39,594 nt of DNA. It comes from Alphaproteobacteria bacterium. Its GTDB lineage: Bacteria > Pseudomonadota > Alphaproteobacteria > ATCC43930 > CGMCC-115725. The notes below the pieces were generated by a model. That model was given only the letters and a program-made list of their open reading frames with translations. It was not told where the DNA came from and ran no database searches. Where the stretch lies: assembly GCA_017353855.1 (NCBI GenBank), contig JAFMSA010000001.1, positions 1 to 39,594 of the forward strand, written 5' to 3'. Positions within the stretch are counted from its first letter, which is position 1. Each line of letters starts with the position of its first letter. Made by a program: the position numbers and the translations under genes. Below are positions 1,729 to 23,389 of this stretch, one piece after another.

Positions 1729-3438
1729 TCAGTAGAGGAAATAGCGCTGCGCCAGTGGCAGAACGCTCGCCGGCTCGCAGCTCAGATGCACTCCGTCGGC
1801 ACGCACCTCGTAGGTCTCCGGGTCGACCTCGATAGATGGGGTCGCGTTGTTGTGAACCATGCGGCTTTTGTCAATCGCGCGGATGCCGCGTGCCGGTAGC
1901 ACGGTGCGCTGCAAACCGAGCACCTGCGGTATTCCGCGTTCGATCGCCAGGCTCGGCAGAAACGTGACTGCCGAGGCCGGCAATGCGCGCCCGAAGGCGC
2001 CGAACATCGGGCGGTAATGGACCGGCTGCGGTGTCGGGATCGAAGCGTTGGGGTCGCCCATCAGTGCCGCAGCGATTGTGCCCGCCTTCAATACCATATC
2101 CGGCTTGACGCCAAAGAAAGCGGGTGACCACAGACAAAGATCGGCGAGCTTGCCGACTTCGACCGAGCCGACATGCTCGGCCAGGCCATGGGTCAGCGCC
2201 GGGTTGATCGTATATTTGGCAATATAGCGCTTGACCCGGAAATTATCGGCGCGGTCGCCGTCTTCGGCGAGCCGGCCGCGCTGCTGCTTCATCTTGTCGG
2301 CGGTCTGCCAGGTGCGGATGATCACTTCGCCGACCCGACCCATCGCCTGGCTGTCCGAAGACATCATGCTGAAGGCACCAAGGTCGTGCAGGATGTCCTC
2401 GGCGGCAATCGTCTCTCGGCGGATGCGGCTCTCGGCGAACGCGACGTCCTCGGGTAAGCGCGGATCGAGGTGATGACACACCATGAGCATGTCGAGATGC
2501 TCGTCGACCGTGTTGACCGTAAAGGGCCGCGTCGGGTTGGTTGACGACGGCAGCACGTTCGGCAACCCGCATAATTTGATGATATCGGGGGCGTGACCGC
2601 CCCCCGCCCCCTCGGTATGAAACGCGTGAATATTGCGCCCCTTGAATGCCGCGATCGTATTTTCGACAAAACCCGATTCGTTGAGGGTGTCGGTGTGGAT
2701 CGCGACCGCAATGTCGAGCTGTTCGGCAACTCCGAGACAGGTGTCGATCGCTGCCGGGGTCGTGCCCCAATCCTCGTGCAGCTTCAGCCCGCAGGCGCCG
2801 GCCTCGATCATCTCGACCAAGGCGCGCGGATCGGCGGCATTGCCTTTGCCGAATAACCCAAGATTGACCGGCAGTCCTTCGGCCGCCTGCAGTATGCGGC
2901 CCAGATGCCACGGACCCGGCGTGCAGGTCGTTGCGGCGGTGCCGGCAGCCGGTCCGGTGCCGCCGCCGAGCATTGTCGTAATCCCGCTATAGAGCGCCTC
3001 CTCGACGAGCTGCGGACAGATGAAATGAATGTGCGAGTCGATGCCTCCGGCAGTGAGGATCCGGTTTTCGCCGGCAATCGCCTCGGTTCCCGGCCCGATC
3101 ACAATGTCGACACCCGGCTGGATATCGGGATTGCCGGCCTTGCCAATGCCGCTGATCCGGCCGTCACGGATCCCGATATCGGCCTTGACGATGCCCCAAT
3201 AGTCCAGGATTACGGCATTGGTGATGACGGTATCGACGGCGCCCTCGGCGCGGGTCGCGCTGCCTTGCCCCATTCCGTCGCGGATGACCTTGCCGCCGCC
3301 GAATTTGACCTCTTCGCCATAGATCGTGCGGTCGCTCTCGATCTCGATAACGAGTTCGGTATCAGCTAAACGCACCCGATCGCCGGTGGTCGGGCCGAAC
3401 ATCGCGGCATAGGCACCGCGCGGGATCATCGTCGCCAT
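1729..3438 (-). CDS. ureC: urease alpha subunit UreC
   Basis: 569 aa with hallmark urease alpha motifs ([27 protein letters not shown]). Confidence 0.98.
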
Positions 3439-4062: not shown

Positions 4063-4148
4063 CGAAAAAAATCCTCGGCTCGCAAACCCCCGCCTTTAGG
4101 CCGGCGAGGAGCGCCGCTCCCGCAGCGCGGGTGACGGCACTGATCCCT

Positions 4149-4377
4149 GGCCCTCACGGACCCCGGTGGCAGGTGGCACAACACCCCCCTCCTCTTCCCC
4201 ATGTTGCCGAGCAGCGGTCGAGCAAGCCCCCGCTCGTACCTATCTCGGGGTTTGTCTGCCGCTTGTCTTCAAGAGGTCCGAACTGAGGAGGCATCCGGAC
4301 GTTGGTCTTGAACTGCTCGGTCAACGTCGTCTCCGGTCTCCCTTCGATTTGGGCCGGTGACCCTCGGGCTTCCGCCC
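4149..4377 (-). repeat. paralogous structured intergenic element, copy 1 (candidate cis-acting/ncRNA, minus sense)
   Basis: Colinear with 23045-23281, sharing blocks ctcggtcaacg, gtctccggt and gggcttccg. No frame is conserved. Minus-sense hairpins are GGUCC[GUGA]GGGCC (4149-4162) and GGGC[GGAA]GCCC (4366-4377). Confidence 0.65.
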
Positions 4378-4879
4378 TCACATCGAAAGCCCTCCCTTCA
4401 GGGCCCTTAAGGGAGGGGATGGGTTACGTTTTTTCACGGCCCTCTCTCTTTCGCCGCCGGGCGGACGGTGATGGGCCCACCAGCGGCGTGCGTCTGCTGA
4501 CCGCCCGGCCTGTACCAAGATGCGTCCGAAGCCGATGGCCTGAGCAACACACCTTACACCAGTCTGAGCGATCCTTTTCTAAAACTCAGCAACGCTGAAC
4601 GGGCGACAATCAAAATCGCACGGGCGGTCATCACGACCAAACGCGCAAAAGGCCTGGCGCTATACCGACGAGCGAAAATCGGCAATAAGAGCAGAGCTCC
4701 CCGTTTCGATATCCGCGATCCAAGAGTGCGCCAATTTCGCTGCCGCAATGCTGCAGTGAGCATCAGCTGTGGGAATGCGGCGTGCTCGGCGGCGAGGTGT
4801 AACGCTTCGCGTCCCCGTGCTGGCGCTCGCTCCACAGCCTTGTTCGGCGAGGCGTAAGTATCGCCAATCGCGTGGCCGG

Positions 4880-5704
4880 CTAGAAATGCCAACTGCGCGG
4901 CAGATGCGACGGCAATCCCAGCGCGGCCGAGCGGAAACGGCTGGCGAGGTCGGCGTACGCTCGACGCAAAGCAGCAGTATCGTAGGCCAGCCAGCGGGCA
5001 ATTACCAAGCCGGCGACCGTCGTCACCCCGGCGCGGATAACTGCCGGGTCGGACGGCCGGATGGCGGGGGCAGCGCCAAGAAACCCCTGCGGGCACTCGT
5101 GCGGCGGGGACAATATCATTGATGCAAATGCGGCCGCGCCGTCGAAACAGGCGGGGTCATCAATGAGGCGCGCCACGTCGTCCTCGAGGTGCAACGCGTC
5201 CCCCCAAATGAGCTTGCCATTGCGCCGCACCTGCCAGACCTCGCGCACAAACCCGTGGGTGAGGCGCTCGCCCCGGGCCCGCCGCCCAAAGACCACAATG
5301 TCGCCGCCGAGAAACCCCGAAGCCGGACCGAGCTCAACGACGGTCTGGCGGTTGAGACGGGCCCCGTCGAACAGGATCGTTTCGAGCGGCAGGAATTCGA
5401 TAATGGCGCGCGCGTCGACCGACAGAAATTGGGAGATCGTCGTTGTCCGGCCGGTCGACCGGTAAACTTTTTCGGCCGCCGAAGACGTGATGTGCGCCGC
5501 AGTGTCCGCCTCGGCCCGTACAGCAATGTCGAGACGATCACCGGCGACGAGCCCGCCGGATGTCGTAACGATCATCGCGAGCGGCGGATCGCCTGCGCCG
5601 GTCGTCGGGAACATGACGCGCAGCGGATCGCGCTGATAAAGATGCGTCAGCCGGGTGACGCCGCCGTCTCGCGCAAAGCCGATTTCGGCAATTCCCTCGG
5701 TCAA
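4880..5704 (-). CDS. ureD: urease accessory protein UreD/UreH
   Basis: 274 aa, UreD-like (LTHLYQRDPLRVMFP...TTSGGLVAGD). The start is TTG at 5704, overlapping the ggt stop (TTGA). Confidence 0.85.
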   Translation of the reverse strand: MTEGIAEIGFARDGGVTRLTHLYQRDPLRVMFPTTGAGDPPLAMIVTTSGGLVAGDRLDIAVRAEADTAAHITSSAAEKVYRSTGRTTTISQFLSVDARAIIEFLPLETILFDGARLNRQTVVELGPASGFLGGDIVVFGRRARGERLTHGFVREVWQVRRNGKLIWGDALHLEDDVARLIDDPACFDGAAAFASMILSPPHECPQGFLGAAPAIRPSDPAVIRAGVTTVAGLVIARWLAYDTAALRRAYADLASRFRSAALGLPSHLPRSWHF

Positions 5705-15374: not shown

Positions 15375-16199
15375 ATGCGGGAGGCGTCGGCGGGTGTTTT
15401 GCCGGCTAGCGGACAGAGCGCCGGGTGCTTGCTTGAAGTGCGCGACGTGGCGCTGCGGTTCGGCGGCATCGTCGCGCTCGACGGCGTTTCTTTCGAACTC
15501 GCCGAAGGGCAAATCCTCGGCCTCATCGGGCCAAACGGCGCCGGAAAGACGACGCTCTTCAACTGCTTGTCGCGGCTCTATACGCCGAGCCGCGGCGACA
15601 TCCTGTTCGAAGGCCGCTCGCTGCTCGCACGCCCGGCGCACCGGATTGCCGAACTCGGCATCGCGCGCACGTTCCAGAACCTCGCCCTGTTCCCGCACCA
15701 ATCGGTTCTGGACAATGTACGTATCGGCGCTCACGCCTGCAGCAGCAGCGATTACCTCAGCGATCTGCTGGGCCTGCCGTGGGTGCGGCGGCAAGAGCGG
15801 GCGCTGGAGAGCGGCGCCCGGGCGCTGCTCGAACTGCTCGATCTCGGACCCGTCGCGCATGCGGTGCCGGAAGGGTTGCCGCTCGGCACCCGTAAGCGCG
15901 TCGAGCTGGCGCGCGCGCTGGCGGCACACCCGAAGCTGCTGCTGCTCGATGAGCCCGCAGGCGGGCTTAACCATGAGGAGGTGGCGGAGCTCGGCGCGCT
16001 GATCGGGCGTATCCGCAGCAGCCGTCGCATGACTGTGCTGCTCGTCGAGCACCACATGAACCTCGTCATGTCGATTTCCGACACGGTCGTCGCGCTTGAT
16101 TTCGGGCGCAAGATCGCGGAGGGCACGCCGGCCGAGGTGCAGCGCGACGAGGCCGTCATCCTCGCCTATCTCGGAAAGCCGCGGAACGAGCGGCAATGA
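15375..16199 (+). CDS. livG: branched-chain amino acid-type ABC transporter ATPase (LivG-like)
   Basis: Walker A GPNGAGKTT, signature, Walker B LLLLDEPAGG and a LivG-type C-terminus. A GGAGGA Shine-Dalgarno is present. Confidence 0.92.
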   Translation: MREASAGVLPASGQSAGCLLEVRDVALRFGGIVALDGVSFELAEGQILGLIGPNGAGKTTLFNCLSRLYTPSRGDILFEGRSLLARPAHRIAELGIARTFQNLALFPHQSVLDNVRIGAHACSSSDYLSDLLGLPWVRRQERALESGARALLELLDLGPVAHAVPEGLPLGTRKRVELARALAAHPKLLLLDEPAGGLNHEEVAELGALIGRIRSSRRMTVLLVEHHMNLVMSISDTVVALDFGRKIAEGTPAEVQRDEAVILAYLGKPRNERQ

Positions 16200-16903
16200 T
16201 GCTCGAGGTGCGCAGCCTCCACGCCTATTACGGCCAGAACGAAGCGTTGCACGGTATCGAGTTTGCGCTTCCCGAGGGCGGCATGGTGGCCCTGCTCGGG
16301 GCCAACGGCGCCGGCAAGACGACAACGCTGCGGGCGGTGTGCGGCATGGTGAGGACGACCGGCGAGATCCGCTTCGACGGCACGTCGATCGCCGGCCGCA
16401 CGACCGAGGAAATCGTGCGGCTCGGAATCGCCCATGTGCCAGAGGGACGCGGCACCTTCGTGCGCATGTCGGTCGAAGAAAACCTCCAATTAGGCGCGAT
16501 GAGCCGCCGTGACCGTGCCGCGATCGTCCGCGACGTGGACTGGATCTACGAGCGCTTCCCACGCCTCAGAGAACGTCGCCGGCAGCAGGCCGGTCTGCTC
16601 TCCGGCGGCGAGCAGCAGATGCTCGCGGTCGGCCGCGCGCTGATGTTGCGTCCCCGGCTGATGCTGCTCGATGAGCCGTCGTTCGGGCTGGCCCCGCTCG
16701 TCGTCGAGGAACTGTTCGCGATCCTCGCCGGCCTCAACCGCGAGACCGGCGTCGGCATGCTCATCGTCGAGCAGAACGCCGAGCTCGCGCTCGAACTGGC
16801 CGAGCGCGCCTATCTGCTGGAGACCGGGCGGATCGTTTTTGCAGGCCCGGCGAGCGAGATCCGCGAAGACGAAGCGGTGCGCCGCGCGTATCTGGGGTAC
16901 TGA
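16196..16903 (+). CDS. livF: branched-chain amino acid-type ABC transporter ATPase (LivF-like)
   Basis: GANGAGKTT, LSGGEQQML, LMLLDEPS. It overlaps livG by 4 nt. Confidence 0.92.
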   Translation: MMLEVRSLHAYYGQNEALHGIEFALPEGGMVALLGANGAGKTTTLRAVCGMVRTTGEIRFDGTSIAGRTTEEIVRLGIAHVPEGRGTFVRMSVEENLQLGAMSRRDRAAIVRDVDWIYERFPRLRERRRQQAGLLSGGEQQMLAVGRALMLRPRLMLLDEPSFGLAPLVVEELFAILAGLNRETGVGMLIVEQNAELALELAERAYLLETGRIVFAGPASEIREDEAVRRAYLGY

Positions 16904-16915
16904 CGGGCGTTGCCG

Positions 16916-17794
16916 ATGCAGCTGTTGATCCAAGAAGTACTGGCTGGGCTCGCCAACGGCGCGATCTACGCGTTGACGGCTCTGGCCATCGTGATGGTCT
17001 TCCAGGCGATCGACCATCTCAATTTCGCGCAGGGGGAGATGGCCACATTCTCGACCTTTGTCGCGTGGCAGCTGATTGAGTGGGGGGTGACGTATTGGGC
17101 CGCTTTTGTCCTCACAGTCGCATTGTCCTTCGCCGGCGGCATCGCCATCGAGCGCGTCTTGTTCCGGCCGCTGCACAAGGCGCCGATTCTCGCCCTGCTT
17201 GTCGGGTTCATCGCACTGTTCAGCATCCTGAACAGCGGTGACGGCTACATCTGGAATTATACGATCAAGACGTTCCCGACCCCATTTGGCACCGCGCCTC
17301 TATTCGGTAGCGCATTGCTCGACGGGCATCAAGCCGGGATGATCGGCGTGACCGCCGTGCTGCTCGGCCTTCTCTACTTCTTCTTCCGTGGCACGCGGCT
17401 CGGTCTGGCGATGCGGGCCGCGGCGGCCAATCCGGAATCGGCGCGGCTAGTCGGCATCCGGGTCGGCTGGATGACGGCGCTCGGCTGGGGCATGGCCGCG
17501 GCGATCGGCGCCGTCGGCGGCATGTTGATCGCGCCGATCGTGTTTCTCGACCCGAATATGATGCTCGGCGTGCTGATCTATGGCTTTTCCGGTGCCGTTC
17601 TTGGCGGGCTGACGAGCCCGGGGGGCGCGGTGTTCGGAGGCTTTGCCGTCGGTGTCATCGAGAGTTTGGCCGGCACCTTCATCCCCTATGTCGGTCGCGA
17701 CCTGAACCTGACGATCGCGCTGTTGGTCATCGTCGCGGTGCTGATGGTCCGCCCCACCGGCATCTTTGGCCGCACCGTCGCGAGCCGCGTATGA
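16916..17794 (+). CDS. livH: ABC transporter permease (LivH-like)
   Basis: Polytopic membrane protein of the LivH family. I prefer the ATG at 16916 to the TTG at 16910. Confidence 0.9.
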   Translation: MQLLIQEVLAGLANGAIYALTALAIVMVFQAIDHLNFAQGEMATFSTFVAWQLIEWGVTYWAAFVLTVALSFAGGIAIERVLFRPLHKAPILALLVGFIALFSILNSGDGYIWNYTIKTFPTPFGTAPLFGSALLDGHQAGMIGVTAVLLGLLYFFFRGTRLGLAMRAAAANPESARLVGIRVGWMTALGWGMAAAIGAVGGMLIAPIVFLDPNMMLGVLIYGFSGAVLGGLTSPGGAVFGGFAVGVIESLAGTFIPYVGRDLNLTIALLVIVAVLMVRPTGIFGRTVASRV

Positions 17795-18828
17795 CGACCC
17801 CGCAGCAGGATTCGGGGCCGATTGCGGCTGCCTTCCGGGCGCGCGCCCGCGGGGCTGCGTGGCCGACGCCGCGTCACTGGCTGCTGGCCGGCGCGGTGGC
17901 GGTCGCTCTCGTCTTGCCGTTCTTTCTCCAGGACTTCCTGGTCTTTCAGCTGACCGAGGTGATGATCTATGGGCTGGCGATTCTCGGCCTCAACCTGCTG
18001 ACCGGCTTCAACGGTCAGTTCTCAGTGGGGCACGGCGCATTTTACGGTCTCGGCGCCTATGTCACGGCGATCCTGATGAGCCGTTACGAGGTGCCGTACT
18101 ACTGGACGCTGCCGGCGGCCGGCGGGATCTGTTTCGTGGTCGGCTTCCTGTTCGGCCTGCCGGCGCTGCGGCTCGAAGGGCTCTACCTGGCGCTCGCCAC
18201 CTTCGCGCTCGCCGTCGCGCTGCCGCAGGTATTGAAATTCCATGGTCTCGAAGCCTGGACCGGCGGGGTACAGGGCATTGTCGTCGACCAGCCGGACGCA
18301 CCGAGCTTTCTGCCGATCGGCGAGGATCAATGGCTCTATTATTTTACCCTCGCCGTCGTGCTGATCATGTTCGCCGGCGCCGCCAACATCGTGAAGAGCC
18401 GCACCGGACGCGCCATCATGGCGATCCGCGACCATCCGCTCGCGGCAACCGCCATGGGGATCAATGCGCCGCTCTACAAGACACTGACCTTTGGCGTGAG
18501 TGCGCTCTACACCGGTGTCGCGGGCGCCCTCGGGGCGCTCGCGGTGCAATTTGTCGCTCCGGACAGCTTCGGCCTGTTCTTGTCGATCTATCTGCTCGTC
18601 GGGCTCATCATCGGTGGCATGGGATCGCTGCCGGGGTGCCTGTTCGGGGGCTTGTTTGTGCTTTACGTGCCGAACCTTGCGCAAGAGGTGTCAAGGGGGC
18701 TGGCGGGCGTTGTGTATGGCGTCATCATGCTGCTGGTGATCTTTGTCATGCCGTCCGGCGCCGCGGGATTCACGCGGCTGGTCGTGGCGCGGCTGTCGCG
18801 ATCGGGCCGGCGTGAGCCGCCAAGCTGA
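17791..18828 (+). CDS. livM: ABC transporter permease (LivM-like)
   Basis: 345 aa, LivM-like (GQFSVGHGAFYGLGAY). It overlaps livH by 4 nt. Confidence 0.9.
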   Translation: MTTPQQDSGPIAAAFRARARGAAWPTPRHWLLAGAVAVALVLPFFLQDFLVFQLTEVMIYGLAILGLNLLTGFNGQFSVGHGAFYGLGAYVTAILMSRYEVPYYWTLPAAGGICFVVGFLFGLPALRLEGLYLALATFALAVALPQVLKFHGLEAWTGGVQGIVVDQPDAPSFLPIGEDQWLYYFTLAVVLIMFAGAANIVKSRTGRAIMAIRDHPLAATAMGINAPLYKTLTFGVSALYTGVAGALGALAVQFVAPDSFGLFLSIYLLVGLIIGGMGSLPGCLFGGLFVLYVPNLAQEVSRGLAGVVYGVIMLLVIFVMPSGAAGFTRLVVARLSRSGRREPPS

Positions 18829-18863
18829 AGTCAGCCTTTCGAGTCCGGAAAAGGGAGGTCACC

Positions 18864-20102
18864 ATGAAGCAGCCGACACGTCGCACGATCCTCTCGGCGG
18901 CTCCAGCCGCACTAGCCTTTGGCGCTCCGCTGCTGTCTGCACGGCCGGCTCGCGCCGCGAAGAGCTCCGGGCCCGGTGTTACCGACACGACGATCAAGAT
19001 CGGCAACACTTGCTTCTACAGCGGACCCGCCTCGTCGTACGGCACGATCGGCCGGGCAATGGCGGCCTACTACAAGATGGTCAACGAGCAGGGCGGCGTG
19101 AACGGTCGCAAGATCATCTTTATTTCCTACGACGACGCCTATTCGCCGCCGAAGACCGTCGAAATGACGCGCAAGCTGGTCGAGCAAGACCAAGTCTTTC
19201 TGGATGCCGGCCCGCTCGGCACGCCGACCAACAGCGCGATCTGGCACTACATGAACCAGCACAAAGTGCCACAGCTGTTCGTGTCGACCGGCGCCACCAA
19301 ATGGGACGACCCCAAGGGCCACCCGTGGACGATCGGCTGGCAGCCGAATTACCAGAGCGAGGGGCGCATCTATGCGGCCTATGTTCTGGAGCACAAGCCC
19401 GACGGCAAGATCGGCGTGCTCTATCAGGACGACGATTTCGGCAAGGACTACCTGAAAGGCATCGTGGACGGACTCGGCGACAAGGCGGCGGCGATGCTGA
19501 AGGTCAAGGCGTCCTACGAGACGACGGATGCCACCGTCGACTCCGAGATCATCGGCATGAAGGCGGCCGGATGCGATGTCTTCATCAACACCGCGATCCC
19601 CAAATTCGCCGCGCAGTCGATCCGAAAGGCGGCCGAGCTCGAATGGAAGCCGCTGCATATCCTGAGCAGCATAGGCAATTCGGTCGCCGCCACGTTGCAG
19701 CCGGCGGGGCTCGAAAACTGCAAGGGCATCTTATCGGACTTCTACCTGAAGGACCCGACCGACCCGGCGTGGAAGGACGACCCCGGCTACAAATGGTGGG
19801 TTGCCTTCATGGACAAGTATTATCCCGGCGGCGACAAGACCGACGGCGGCAACGTCTACGGCCCTTCCAATGCCGCGACGATCGTGCAGGTGCTGCAGCA
19901 ATGCGGCGACGACTTGACGCGCGAAAACGTGATGAAGCAAGCCGCAAACCTGCGCGACTTCCGTGTGCCGATGCTGCTGCCCGGGATCACGATCAACACC
20001 AGCCCGAGCGACTTCGCCCCGGTCAAGCAGGTGCAGATGGGCCGCTTCGACGGCGAGCGCTGGCGGCTGTTCGGCCCGCTCCTGACGGGCGCGGTCGGCT
20101 AG
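18864..20102 (+). CDS. periplasmic substrate-binding protein, Leu/Ile/Val-binding family
   Basis: 412 aa with an N-terminal signal (MKQPTRRTILSAAPAALAFGAPLLSARPARA) and a type I periplasmic binding fold pattern. It is the last gene of the liv-type operon. Confidence 0.88.
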   Translation: MKQPTRRTILSAAPAALAFGAPLLSARPARAAKSSGPGVTDTTIKIGNTCFYSGPASSYGTIGRAMAAYYKMVNEQGGVNGRKIIFISYDDAYSPPKTVEMTRKLVEQDQVFLDAGPLGTPTNSAIWHYMNQHKVPQLFVSTGATKWDDPKGHPWTIGWQPNYQSEGRIYAAYVLEHKPDGKIGVLYQDDDFGKDYLKGIVDGLGDKAAAMLKVKASYETTDATVDSEIIGMKAAGCDVFINTAIPKFAAQSIRKAAELEWKPLHILSSIGNSVAATLQPAGLENCKGILSDFYLKDPTDPAWKDDPGYKWWVAFMDKYYPGGDKTDGGNVYGPSNAATIVQVLQQCGDDLTRENVMKQAANLRDFRVPMLLPGITINTSPSDFAPVKQVQMGRFDGERWRLFGPLLTGAVG

Positions 20103-21848: not shown

Positions 21849-22898
21849 TCAGTGCGGCGGTGCGGCCACACCGCCGCGAACTTCGTGGACGACGACGCCC
21901 GACAGCCGCGGAGGCGGTGCCAGCCAGCGGGGGTGCGCGAGGCTCGTTCCAATATCGCTTTCTCCGGCTCTCCACCGACGCGCAACGGCGGCAGACGAGA
22001 AATCGGCCATTTTGGCCGCCAAATCCATCGAGTTTCCCTCATGCACAAGACGCAGGATCGTCATCGTCGCACTCGTGGCTTCGCAGAGACATCGGCGAAT
22101 GTCGACATCGCTTCTCAGGCTGGCCGGCAGGCGTTCACCGAGCACCGCGATCCGGCGACGCAGATCGTAGGTGCGGCGCATCGCGGCAATTTCCCGCGCG
22201 GTGCGGCTGATCCCGCCATTGACACCGGGGAGCGGATCATAGCCGTCGATCGCAAAGCACAGTGTATCGGCCGGTCGCGCTTCGTCGAGCGCGCAAACCG
22301 GCAAAGCCGCGCCCCCGAAGAGGTGATGATCGATCATCACCGGCGCCAACCCTGGTACCGGGCTGCCTGCCAATACGTGATCGGGACCGAGAACGTGCCG
22401 ATCGTTGTCGAAGAATGTTTCGGCTCCCGACGCCAGGTTCACCGCCCCGAACACGACCCTGACTGCGCCCGAATTGATCTGCTCGAAATTGACGGTCTTG
22501 CTGATCAAAACCCGCAATTCGGCGGCGGAAAGCACAGGCTCGTCATCCCGCAGCAACATTGCCGGCCAGCGCCGGCGGCCCGCGAAAAAACGCGCCAATG
22601 CCGATTTTCCTGATCGGCTCCACCCTCGGGCACCGCCCGAGCGATCGGCAATCCGCCTGCTGAACTCCTGCCAGAACTGGCGCAGTCGCTGCACTCGTTC
22701 GTGCGGGAGGTTCCCCGCGATGATGGCGGCGTTGATCGCACCGATAGCGGTGGCGGCTATCCAGTTCGGGCGAACGCCGCACTTCTCCAGAGCCGCACAG
22801 GCTCCCGCCTGATACGCTCCCAGCGCTCCGCCCCCCGACAATACCAACGCAATCCGTTCGAAACGGGCCAAGTTCTTCTCGGGTCGCCCTCGCGCCAC
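21849..22898 (-). CDS. patatin-like phospholipase family protein (DUF3734-type), catalytic dyad lost
   Basis: GGGALGAYQAG oxyanion motif and a family-typical C-terminus. GXSXG reads A-T-A-I-G (22740-22754) and DGG reads F-G-G (F194, 22317-22319). Confidence 0.85.
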   Translation of the reverse strand: MARGRPEKNLARFERIALVLSGGGALGAYQAGACAALEKCGVRPNWIAATAIGAINAAIIAGNLPHERVQRLRQFWQEFSRRIADRSGGARGWSRSGKSALARFFAGRRRWPAMLLRDDEPVLSAAELRVLISKTVNFEQINSGAVRVVFGAVNLASGAETFFDNDRHVLGPDHVLAGSPVPGLAPVMIDHHLFGGAALPVCALDEARPADTLCFAIDGYDPLPGVNGGISRTAREIAAMRRTYDLRRRIAVLGERLPASLRSDVDIRRCLCEATSATMTILRLVHEGNSMDLAAKMADFSSAAVARRWRAGESDIGTSLAHPRWLAPPPRLSGVVVHEVRGGVAAPPH

Positions 22899-23044
22899 GA
22901 CTAGCTCTCCGCCACCGAGCCGCCTACCAGCAAGTGCTGCATCGCGTCAATCCAACGAACACCCATCGCGTGTGTTTCCGGGGTGGATACGCCGGCCTTT
23001 CAGGTCCGGGCAGGAGCCCGTCGCACGGACGAGGGGGGCTTTCC

Positions 23045-23281
23045 GGGTCCTTACGGACCCGCGTGACGGGAAGCTTTCGCTTCCGCTCCCCTCACCAATG
23101 TCAACCGGCAGCATTTCGGACAAGCCCGCTTCATCCCCACCCCAGGGGTTGTCTGCAGCCTGTCCTTCGAGAGGTCGGGACTGGGCAAGCCCCCCAAAGT
23201 CGGTCTTTGAGCTTCTCGGTCAACGCAGTCTCCGGTTTCCTTTCGACTTAGGGGGTCTGGCATGGGCTTCCGAAAAAGCCC
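23045..23281 (-). repeat. paralogous structured intergenic element, copy 2 (candidate cis-acting/ncRNA, minus sense)
   Basis: Colinear with 4149-4377. Minus-sense hairpins are GGGUCC[GUAA]GGACCC (23045-23060), GGAAGC[GAAA]GCUUCC (23069-23084) and GGGCUUU[UUCG]GAAGCCC (23264-23281). Confidence 0.65.
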
Positions 23282-23389
23282 CCGGCCTGAGCTGTGGGAA
23301 CTGCTTACGCGCTGCCCGGGAGACTTTCGCCCCTGCAGGCTCGTCATCATAGGGGGTCCGGCCCCCGCGTCCAATCCTGAAAGCTGTTC

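Follow-up and report, generated by a model that had tools for sequence, protein, structure and literature searches.

The gap of 491 nucleotides (nt) that precedes a patatin-like gene in a 39,594-nt stretch of alphaproteobacterial DNA (contig JAFMSA010000001.1, positions 1 to 39,594; hereafter the window) harbors a guide-RNA gene of transposon origin. Positions ~23308 to 22967 of the minus strand, hereafter copy 2, are an IscB-type IS200/IS605 (OMEGA) derivative that lacks an open reading frame (ORF), is non-autonomous, and represents a standalone omega-RNA gene. A related element without an ORF, copy 1, is located upstream of ureA (Table 1). HEARO RNA and omega-RNA are two names for one molecule, which guides the transposon-encoded nuclease IscB (PMC9755519; Meers et al., 10.1101/2023.03.14.532601), and the work of Weinberg 2009 and Altae-Tran 2021 on HEARO and OMEGA is referred to here as summarized in those two papers. 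We hold the assignment of the element to the IscB omega-RNA lineage with very high confidence.

Homology and folded structure of the element

An earlier note on this DNA, made from the sequence alone, had described the gap in the minus sense as a large, uncharacterised folded RNA with a second copy elsewhere in the window, and had proposed a comparison with Rfam. At Rfam gathering thresholds nothing was reported in either gap and no riboswitch family was matched. With E-value reporting, both copies matched HEARO (RF02033; gathering score 83 bits) on the minus strand. Copy 2 (23080-23308) covered model positions 1-211 of 211 with 42.3 bits (E 2.4e-7), and copy 1 (4178-4427) covered the same 1-211 of 211 with 38.0 bits (E 2.6e-6). 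The second copy is thus real, and it was also recovered by direct comparison: blastn aligned 23125-23252 with 4229-4353 at 75% identity over 128 nt (E 1.7e-16), and a full (global) alignment gave 72% column identity across the shared ~350 nt.

The relatives of the element lead to the same family. In a 7.3-Gb plasmid collection, blastn with the copy 2 core matched Cupriavidus megaplasmids (E 9e-7). The matched sites score 118-124 bits as bona fide HEARO RNAs, and each is followed after ~55 nt by a gene for a 466-amino-acid (aa) protein with RRXRR and HNH domains. These three Cupriavidus matches were the only ones in the plasmid collection, and the phage collection gave none. The nearest relatives, found by a pattern scan of metagenomes, are three loci from soil metagenomes (L056, L061, L062) that are 73-86% identical to the window copies, score 70-74 bits, and lie ~45 nt upstream of a gene for a 455-aa RRXRR+HNH IscB. 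The RNA stands directly upstream of an IscB gene, and co-oriented with it, in these three loci as well as in L001, L002, and L047/48/50. The RNA that the earlier note took to be uncharacterised is therefore a member of the HEARO/IscB omega-RNA lineage. The window element and HEARO have the motifs ACGUU, AAGACC, CCUCU, AACAU and GAGGGGAG in common, and similarity among all family members begins at one sharp 5′ boundary, GT(A/C)A, which here corresponds to G23308. Scanning a genome collection with CCGGAGACNNCGTTGACCGAG returned 44 loci, all 44 of them chance or coding matches.

The folded structure of copy 2 agrees with that of the family. All seven structural features listed in the earlier note are present in the minus sense, namely the hairpins at 23352-23366, 23320-23333, 23264-23281, 23069-23084, 23045-23060 and 22992-23009 and a pairing of 23244-23255 with 23191-23202. 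The first two hairpins lie outside the inserted element, in native sequence, while 23264-23281 is the second hairpin inside P1 of the HEARO fold, and the GNRA-capped hairpins, as had been supposed, are part of a conserved architecture. A large structured RNA in the minus sense was likewise borne out, by the RF02033 match and by a minimum free energy (MFE) z-score of -2.33 in the minus sense as against -0.92 in the plus sense, both relative to shuffled sequence, so that the minus strand folds better than its shuffles and the plus strand does not. In copy 2, 58 of the 70 RF02033 model pairs are canonical. For a test across the family, the Rfam consensus pairs and two 3′ hairpins were mapped through copy 2 onto a 10-sequence MAFFT alignment (A3), which is not structure-aware and under-counts pairs where MAFFT shifts a strand, for example helix 10 of copy 1. 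In A3, 75.3% of cells were paired, compared with 61.5% after shuffling of columns and 29-47% for slid partners, and changes on both sides were observed in 34 of 76 pairs. On this comparative evidence the consensus helices are predicted to form and are backed by covariation.

This covarying structure also bears on the long-range pairing, in which 11 of 12 positions match. It exists, and a single-sequence MFE fold uses it, but the family structure contradicts it, since both strands have other covarying partners: the 5′ strand sits in helices 5 and 6 of the RF02033 fold, and the 3′ strand in helix 9, where pairing reaches 96% and three pairs covary. We therefore rejected the pairing as a biological fold. 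Nor have the two copies diverged in architecture, as had been considered, because both share the HEARO helices, the 3′ hairpins, the linker and the terminal hairpin. Downstream of the end of the Rfam model, and before the start of iscB in the IscB-linked cases, copy 2 and all IscB-linked RNAs carry two GNRA hairpins separated by a CGU(C/U)AC linker; the layout in L001 is GCCCC[GCAA]GGGGC..GGCCC[GUAA]GGGC just before the iscB start codon. In copy 1, 3′ hairpin 1 is degenerate. RF02033 does not include these downstream elements (Meers et al., 10.1101/2023.03.14.532601).

Table 1 Features of the two window copies (positions refer to the window) and classes of related loci with their RF02033 scores.
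Feature	Position	Strand	Description
Promoter-like TGGACG-N16-TATGAT	23346-23373	-	Native, upstream of the insertion point; consensus scan
Guide-equivalent segment, 16 nt of native DNA	23309-23324	-	Directly 5′ of the scaffold; guide position from the literature
Omega-RNA/HEARO scaffold, copy 2	23080-23308	-	RF02033 match, 42 bits; ORF-less; holds GGGCUUU[UUCG]GAAGCCC at 23264-23281
Two 3′ GNRA hairpins	23045-23084	-	GGAAGC[GAAA]GCUUCC, linker CGUCACGC, GGGUCC[GUAA]GGACCC
Linker and iscB 3′-end remnant	22967-23044	-	Terminal hairpin CCGGACC[UGAAA]GGCCGG at 22992-23009
ATGGG, candidate target-adjacent motif	22962-22966	-	Just outside the element end; alternative ATGCA at 22938-22942
Native 5′ untranslated region and ribosome-binding region of the patatin-like gene	22899-22961	-	Aligns with insertion-free orthologous loci
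Copy 1, ORF-less element	4063-4427	-	RF02033 38 bits; scaffold 4178-4427; GGGUCC[GUGA]GGGCC at 4149-4164; terminal hairpin ~4087-4106
L001, L002, L047			IscB-linked; RF02033 116-124 bits
L051			ORF-less, no IscB on a 5.8-kb viral contig; RF02033 116.7 bits
L056, L061, L062			IscB-linked, clade closest to the window; RF02033 70-74 bits
L063			Decayed, iscB cut to residues ~290-431; RF02033 no match at E < 0.01

Loss of the nuclease gene and insertion at two sites

The genes downstream of the copies are the patatin-like gene and ureA rather than an IscB gene. A tblastn search with IscB across the 39.6-kb window found nothing (E > 0.7), and a Pfam scan of about 40 window ORFs yielded housekeeping genes only, with neither IscB nor the transposase TnpA among them. 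A remnant of the lost gene is retained, however, at the 3′ end of the element. After hairpin 2, copy 2 continues with a linker of 13-20 nt and then a tail that aligns with the last ~50-75 nt of the iscB ORFs in L001, L002, L048 and L061, encoding ..SLPGLKAEVSRAN*. In five of six comparisons the tail corresponded to the extreme 3′ end of the ORF. Copy 1 aligns with the tail of copy 2 throughout, and the whole of the iscB ORF between the 3′ hairpins and the tail is gone in the window element. Hairpin 2 and the terminal hairpin are 34 and 42 nt apart in the two copies. Given this spacing and the alignment throughout, the simpler history is that iscB was deleted once, in an ancestor, and that the ORF-less unit then transposed; this we infer rather than regard as proven.

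Other states of the family were encountered among the relatives. One relative (L052/L063; L063 2250-2800) is without the first ~45 nt and the 3′ hairpins, and continues with an iscB fragment covering residues ~290-431; it is an independent state of internal deletion and decay of the same element family. The viral contig L051 carries an intact ORF-less HEARO at 5340-5606 on the minus strand, followed by the hairpin GCGGTACCAC[TCTTTC]GTGGTACCGC and ..GTC|ATGGG, with a second, partial copy at the contig edge (5730-5776).

The iscB remnant also delimits how far the gap could be a former protein-coding gene, an outcome that the earlier note had named as one that would overturn its reading. Such an origin applies to the last ~75 nt, the 3′ end of the deleted iscB ORF, and not to the remainder. 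A decayed or unannotated coding gene in this region, or hairpins formed by chance in a GC-rich spacer, is accordingly an explanation to which we give almost no weight. Long ORFs do cross the region (one of 107 aa on the minus strand and two, of 126 and 105 aa, on the plus strand) and the genome has a GC content of 62-65%, but the ORFs through the two copies use different frames and the copies are separated by 1-nt indels, so that coding is not conserved. The covariance-model, blastn and nhmmer matches to the RNA family are, in addition, highly significant, and the helices are backed by covariation.

Comparison with orthologous loci provides evidence that copy 2 is an insertion. Exact-sequence look-ups of the patatin, cytochrome c and UreA proteins found none on record, and the patatin and urease orthologues were reached by homology searches. 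Patatin orthologues with 77-79% identity occur in the same gene order as in the window: glutathione S-transferase, cytochrome c′, diheme cytochrome c, patatin-like, and polyhydroxybutyrate (PHB) depolymerase. In the window, as had been noted, 491 nt of minus-sense sequence separate the stop of the diheme cytochrome c gene (23390) from the start of the patatin-like gene (22898), whereas this gap measures 123-132 nt in four syntenic loci, with flanks that align on both sides. The gap alignment assigns 23389 to ~23309 and ~22961 (or ~22930) to 22899 to native sequence and leaves the middle without a counterpart, which identifies copy 2 as an insertion from about 23308 to 22967. The gap is thus not the single unit for which it had been taken: ~80 nt of native sequence at its 5′ side and 45-70 nt at its 3′ side enclose an insertion of ~340 nt. 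The orthologous native sequence stops at the edge of the guide-equivalent segment, exactly where the family similarity starts; this segment overlaps the hairpin GGGGC[GAAA]GUCUC.

Copy 1 has an empty counterpart as well. The ureD-ureA gap is 15 nt in L073 (on the same contig as L071; UreD 68% identical) and 817 nt here, the extra DNA in the window being copy 1 and a small ORF of ~70 aa. This ORF (MLTAALRQRNWRTLGSRISKRG...) lies at 4554-4765 on the minus strand, between ureD and copy 1; a similar ORF follows ureD in L074 and is absent in L073. Presence and absence at orthologous sites is therefore established for both copies, copy 2 being missing in four loci and copy 1 in L073.

No direct repeat flanks the element. 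In six relatives and in copy 1 its end is followed by an ATGRR motif, which reads ATGAA in L001 and L002, ATGAG in L048 and L061, ATGGG in L063 and L051, and ATGAA in copy 1. A motif of this type is the reverse complement of the TTCAT-type target-adjacent motif (TAM) reported for Geobacillus IscB (Meers et al., 10.1101/2023.03.14.532601). Copy 1, with the end CG|ATGAA, directly adjoins the start codon of ureA (4062), so that the ATG of the motif is the start of ureA. Comparison of CG|ATGAAC with the empty site of the relative, GCTGG-ATGAAC, places the insertion exactly at this start (4063-4075 and 4443-4451, minus strand). The insertion parts ureA from its upstream GAGAGAGGG, and the element end provides GAGGA 9 nt before the ATG. 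For copy 2 there are two candidate ends, CG|ATGGG (22967) and CG|ATGCA (22943); the element probably ends at G22967 rather than at G22943, as this end fits the architecture of copy 1 better. Among the relatives, the closest IscB element (L061, 100-140 and 1760-1800; also L062) lies inside the 3′ end of a thiD-like ORF (..GHGPLNHF | element | HEPHRP*), and the boundaries GTAAGC... and ...TTG|ATGAG are supported there, since removal of the L061 element restores a plausible C-terminus.

Probable decay, possible retained function and expected expression

Whether the copies are intact or decayed was assessed against a reference set of 47 pairs kept in at least six of seven IscB-linked RNAs. Copy 2 retains 42 of these pairs (89%) and copy 1 retains 37 (79%), a count lowered by the shift of helix 10 in the alignment, while the clearly decayed L063 retains 28 (60%). 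Among the columns that are invariant in IscB-linked RNAs, 27 of 126 (21%) are changed in each window copy, the conserved GGAUGC loop region included, and three of the eight P1 pairs of copy 2 are broken. From these comparisons we conclude that the copies appear eroded, yet would still be largely foldable. With neither IscB nor TnpA nearby and with clear erosion of conserved positions, we lean, with some reserve, to the reading that both copies are partly decayed relics without a host function and with incidental effects only. Such effects would be the long structured 5′ untranslated region (5′ UTR) that copy 2 gives to the patatin transcript and the replaced Shine-Dalgarno context of ureA.

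Several observations weigh against parts of this assessment. The retained pairing of 89% and 79%, set against the 60% of L063, weakens the view of the copies as relics, and the six double compensatory changes between copy 1 and copy 2 are not what plain decay would leave. Both copies are sited where transcription is expected. The genome was seen within the 39.6-kb window, and an IscB or TnpA acting in trans from outside it is possible. The identification itself has points on the other side: the copies reach about half of the gathering score of RF02033, a score that their closest IscB-linked relatives do not reach either; the association of RNA and ORF that characterizes the family is absent here; the homology of the tail to iscB gave single pairwise scores marginally above those of shuffled sequences; and the 3′ boundary of copy 2 is ambiguous.

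Some of these points favor the alternative that the same element is still functional, acting in trans as a standalone omega-RNA that loads an IscB (possibly also TnpA) encoded elsewhere. We consider it possible, though clearly the less probable account, and consider likewise possible its corollary that the ribonucleoprotein would target the empty-site sequence (GTCTCCCGGGCAGCGC + ATGGG), the mini-element being kept or spread as a parasite of full-length elements. Most of the conserved helices are intact, and the two copies differ by compensatory double changes, but these changes could predate the loss of the ORF if the deletions were independent. A linker arrangement in common (34 and 42 nt) is suggestive of transposition by a single ORF-less ancestor. 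Each copy has the orientation of its upstream gene, and copy 2 follows a conserved promoter-like site by ~30 nt. Standalone omega-RNAs that work with IscB are on record (PMC9581776), and L051 offers an intact ORF-less HEARO. The copies score 30 bits below the closest IscB-linked RNAs, however, and their changes at 21% of the invariant positions extend into the GGAUGC loop region. Copy 2 has a weakened P1 and copy 1 a degenerate 3′ hairpin 1, and no IscB or TnpA is found within 39.6 kb.

More tentatively, and with rather little weight, we entertain a wider version of this idea, in which the copies represent a family of mini-transposons reduced to a guide RNA, that is, an omega-RNA plus one element end left by a single iscB deletion. 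Selection would act on the RNA structure, and the family would either parasitise IscB and TnpA in trans or have been co-opted in host operons. With the same small weight, its two examples would be the 5′ UTR of the patatin-like gene and the ureD-ureA junction, at which the ribosome-binding context of ureA now comes from the element.

A host cis-regulatory or operon-internal RNA (a leader, processing site or stabiliser) for the patatin-like gene and ureABC, possibly an exapted transposon, appears improbable to us. The position of the copies may suggest it, as each is immediately followed by a host gene of like orientation, copy 2 within the patatin 5′ UTR and copy 1 supplying GAGGA 9 nt before the ureA ATG, and the downstream genes remain readable, with no terminator-like site predicted. 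Yet the same genes occur without the element in syntenic relatives (patatin 77-79%, UreD 68% identical), which also removes the suggestion of a conserved leader of patatin or ureABC, and the two downstream genes are functionally unrelated. A search of the window for second targets of both guide-equivalent segments gave chance-level matches only, among them a site with two mismatches at 22577-22591 without an adjacent ATGRR, so no credible second target is present in the window for either segment. Transposon origin, finally, explains the sequence fully. The weights expressed in words for decayed relics, for retained trans function, for host regulation, and for a coding or chance origin are our estimates, which sum to about one.

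For the partly decayed relics that we favor, expression would follow from the place of insertion. The promoter-like site upstream of copy 2, TGGACG-N16-TATGAT (23373 to 23346), has hexamers and spacing that are invariant in L069, L071 and L072, with a spacer that varies; the hairpin at 23352-23366 sits in this variable spacer. The site is probably the own promoter of the patatin-like gene, which would argue against a simple operon of cytochrome c and patatin. Both copies are indeed placed between co-directional genes, as the earlier note had said. In the mechanism that we propose, the element would have landed beside an ATGRR motif ~30 nt downstream of this promoter-like site, and by virtue of that position copy 2 would be transcribed as the 5′ part of the patatin mRNA, while read-through along the ure operon would account for transcription of copy 1. 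In the RNA, the scaffold would be joined to 16 nt of host flank that form its ‘guide’. A preference for the orientation of the upstream gene is described for IscB elements (Meers et al., 10.1101/2023.03.14.532601), and no terminator-like site was predicted in the region of either copy. The co-orientation of both copies with their neighbours, the location of copy 2 after the promoter-like site, and the lack of a predicted terminator make it very likely that the RNA is produced, within the patatin 5′ UTR in one case and within the ure transcript in the other.

What such an RNA would do can be outlined from the complete system, in which the omega-RNA is transcribed together with a few bases of flank that act as guide, and IscB cuts the empty donor joint by its TAM after excision by TnpA and so restores the element (Meers et al., 10.1101/2023.03.14.532601). 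By this model the omega-RNA would load IscB, IscB would cut the empty donor site (guide match plus TAM) left after TnpA excision, and the element would be copied back. Any such action of the window RNAs depends on an IscB elsewhere in the genome, which a copy could still serve.

Neighbourhood and comparison with known systems

The patatin-like protein downstream of copy 2 (21849-22898, minus strand) does lack its nucleophile serine, as had been noted, with ATAIG where GxSxG is expected. In eight of eight orthologues (72-80% identical) Ala takes the place of the serine, within GTA(I/V)G or, in a single case, STAIG. Absence of the serine is hence old, conserved and family-wide rather than the mark of a local pseudogene, and it is unrelated to the element. 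Some gene calls for patatin in relatives start ~30 codons further upstream, at an ATGA that overlaps the cytochrome c stop.

Two further observations concern the neighbourhood. At 2997-3286 on the plus strand, antisense to the beginning of the gene for the urease alpha subunit (its 5′ part; gene at 1729-3438, minus strand), Rfam reports 5_ureB_sRNA (RF02514) with 91.4 bits, which exceeds the gathering score; this match may stem from the conserved coding sequence of urease and not from an antisense sRNA. At 15375-20102 on the plus strand, a five-gene ABC transporter cluster of the branched-chain type lies between the PHB depolymerase and BKACE genes. These two genes are adjacent in L069 and L071, and the cluster is a second lineage-specific insertion nearby.

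These results explain a conspicuous structured spacer without a new class of RNA. They also show how divergent ORF-less omega-RNA copies slip under the Rfam gathering threshold and can pass for riboregulators of a new kind. With empty sites mapped for both, the copies offer a clean natural example of the insertion of an IscB element beside a candidate ATGRR motif, one of them using the ureA start codon, and they document the loss of the nuclease while the guide-RNA gene stays. Should an IscB exist elsewhere in the genome, the two loci would be ready test cases for trans-acting omega-RNAs.

The copies belong to an already known kind, described by the terms HEARO, standalone omega-RNA and ORF-less IS200/IS605 derivative, and are no new RNA class, because the HEARO features that were tested are present with two exceptions, the curated score and the adjacent ORF, and because they fit the descriptions of standalone omega-RNAs and of PATEs. 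With HEARO/RF02033 they share all model positions, the same covarying helices and motifs, the two 3′ GNRA hairpins and the GT(A/C)A 5′ boundary, and the closest relatives of the window element precede RRXRR+HNH IscB genes. They differ in reaching about half of the curated score, in having no IscB ORF after the RNA, and in the changes at 21% of invariant positions.

Standalone omega-RNAs able to work with IscB are attributed to Altae-Tran et al. 2021, as cited in Hirano et al. 2022 (PMC9581776). To the extent of that citation, the window copies resemble them as omega-RNA genes without an adjacent effector gene, but differ in looking eroded, when the ORF-less L051 scores 116.7 bits, and in being without an identified partner IscB. 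TldR and other exapted OMEGA guide-RNA systems (Wiegand et al. 2024, as cited in PMC13565253) are likewise comparable, as far as that citation describes them, in placing a transposon-derived guide-RNA scaffold beside host genes; the window differs in having no nuclease-dead partner nearby, a locus that is not conserved in relatives, and no detectable guide-target pair within the window. PATEs, which are palindrome-associated, ORF-less IS200/IS605 derivatives (Meers et al. 2023, Extended Data Fig. 2e; 10.1101/2023.03.14.532601), share with the window element a deleted interior with ends kept, absence from orthologous sites, a candidate TAM-like motif beside the element and the presence of more than one copy. 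The terminal hairpin, a candidate subterminal recognition site for a Y1 transposase, is conserved as well, in a window that encodes no TnpA. In contrast to PATEs, the window element keeps a complete guide-RNA gene beyond its end hairpins.

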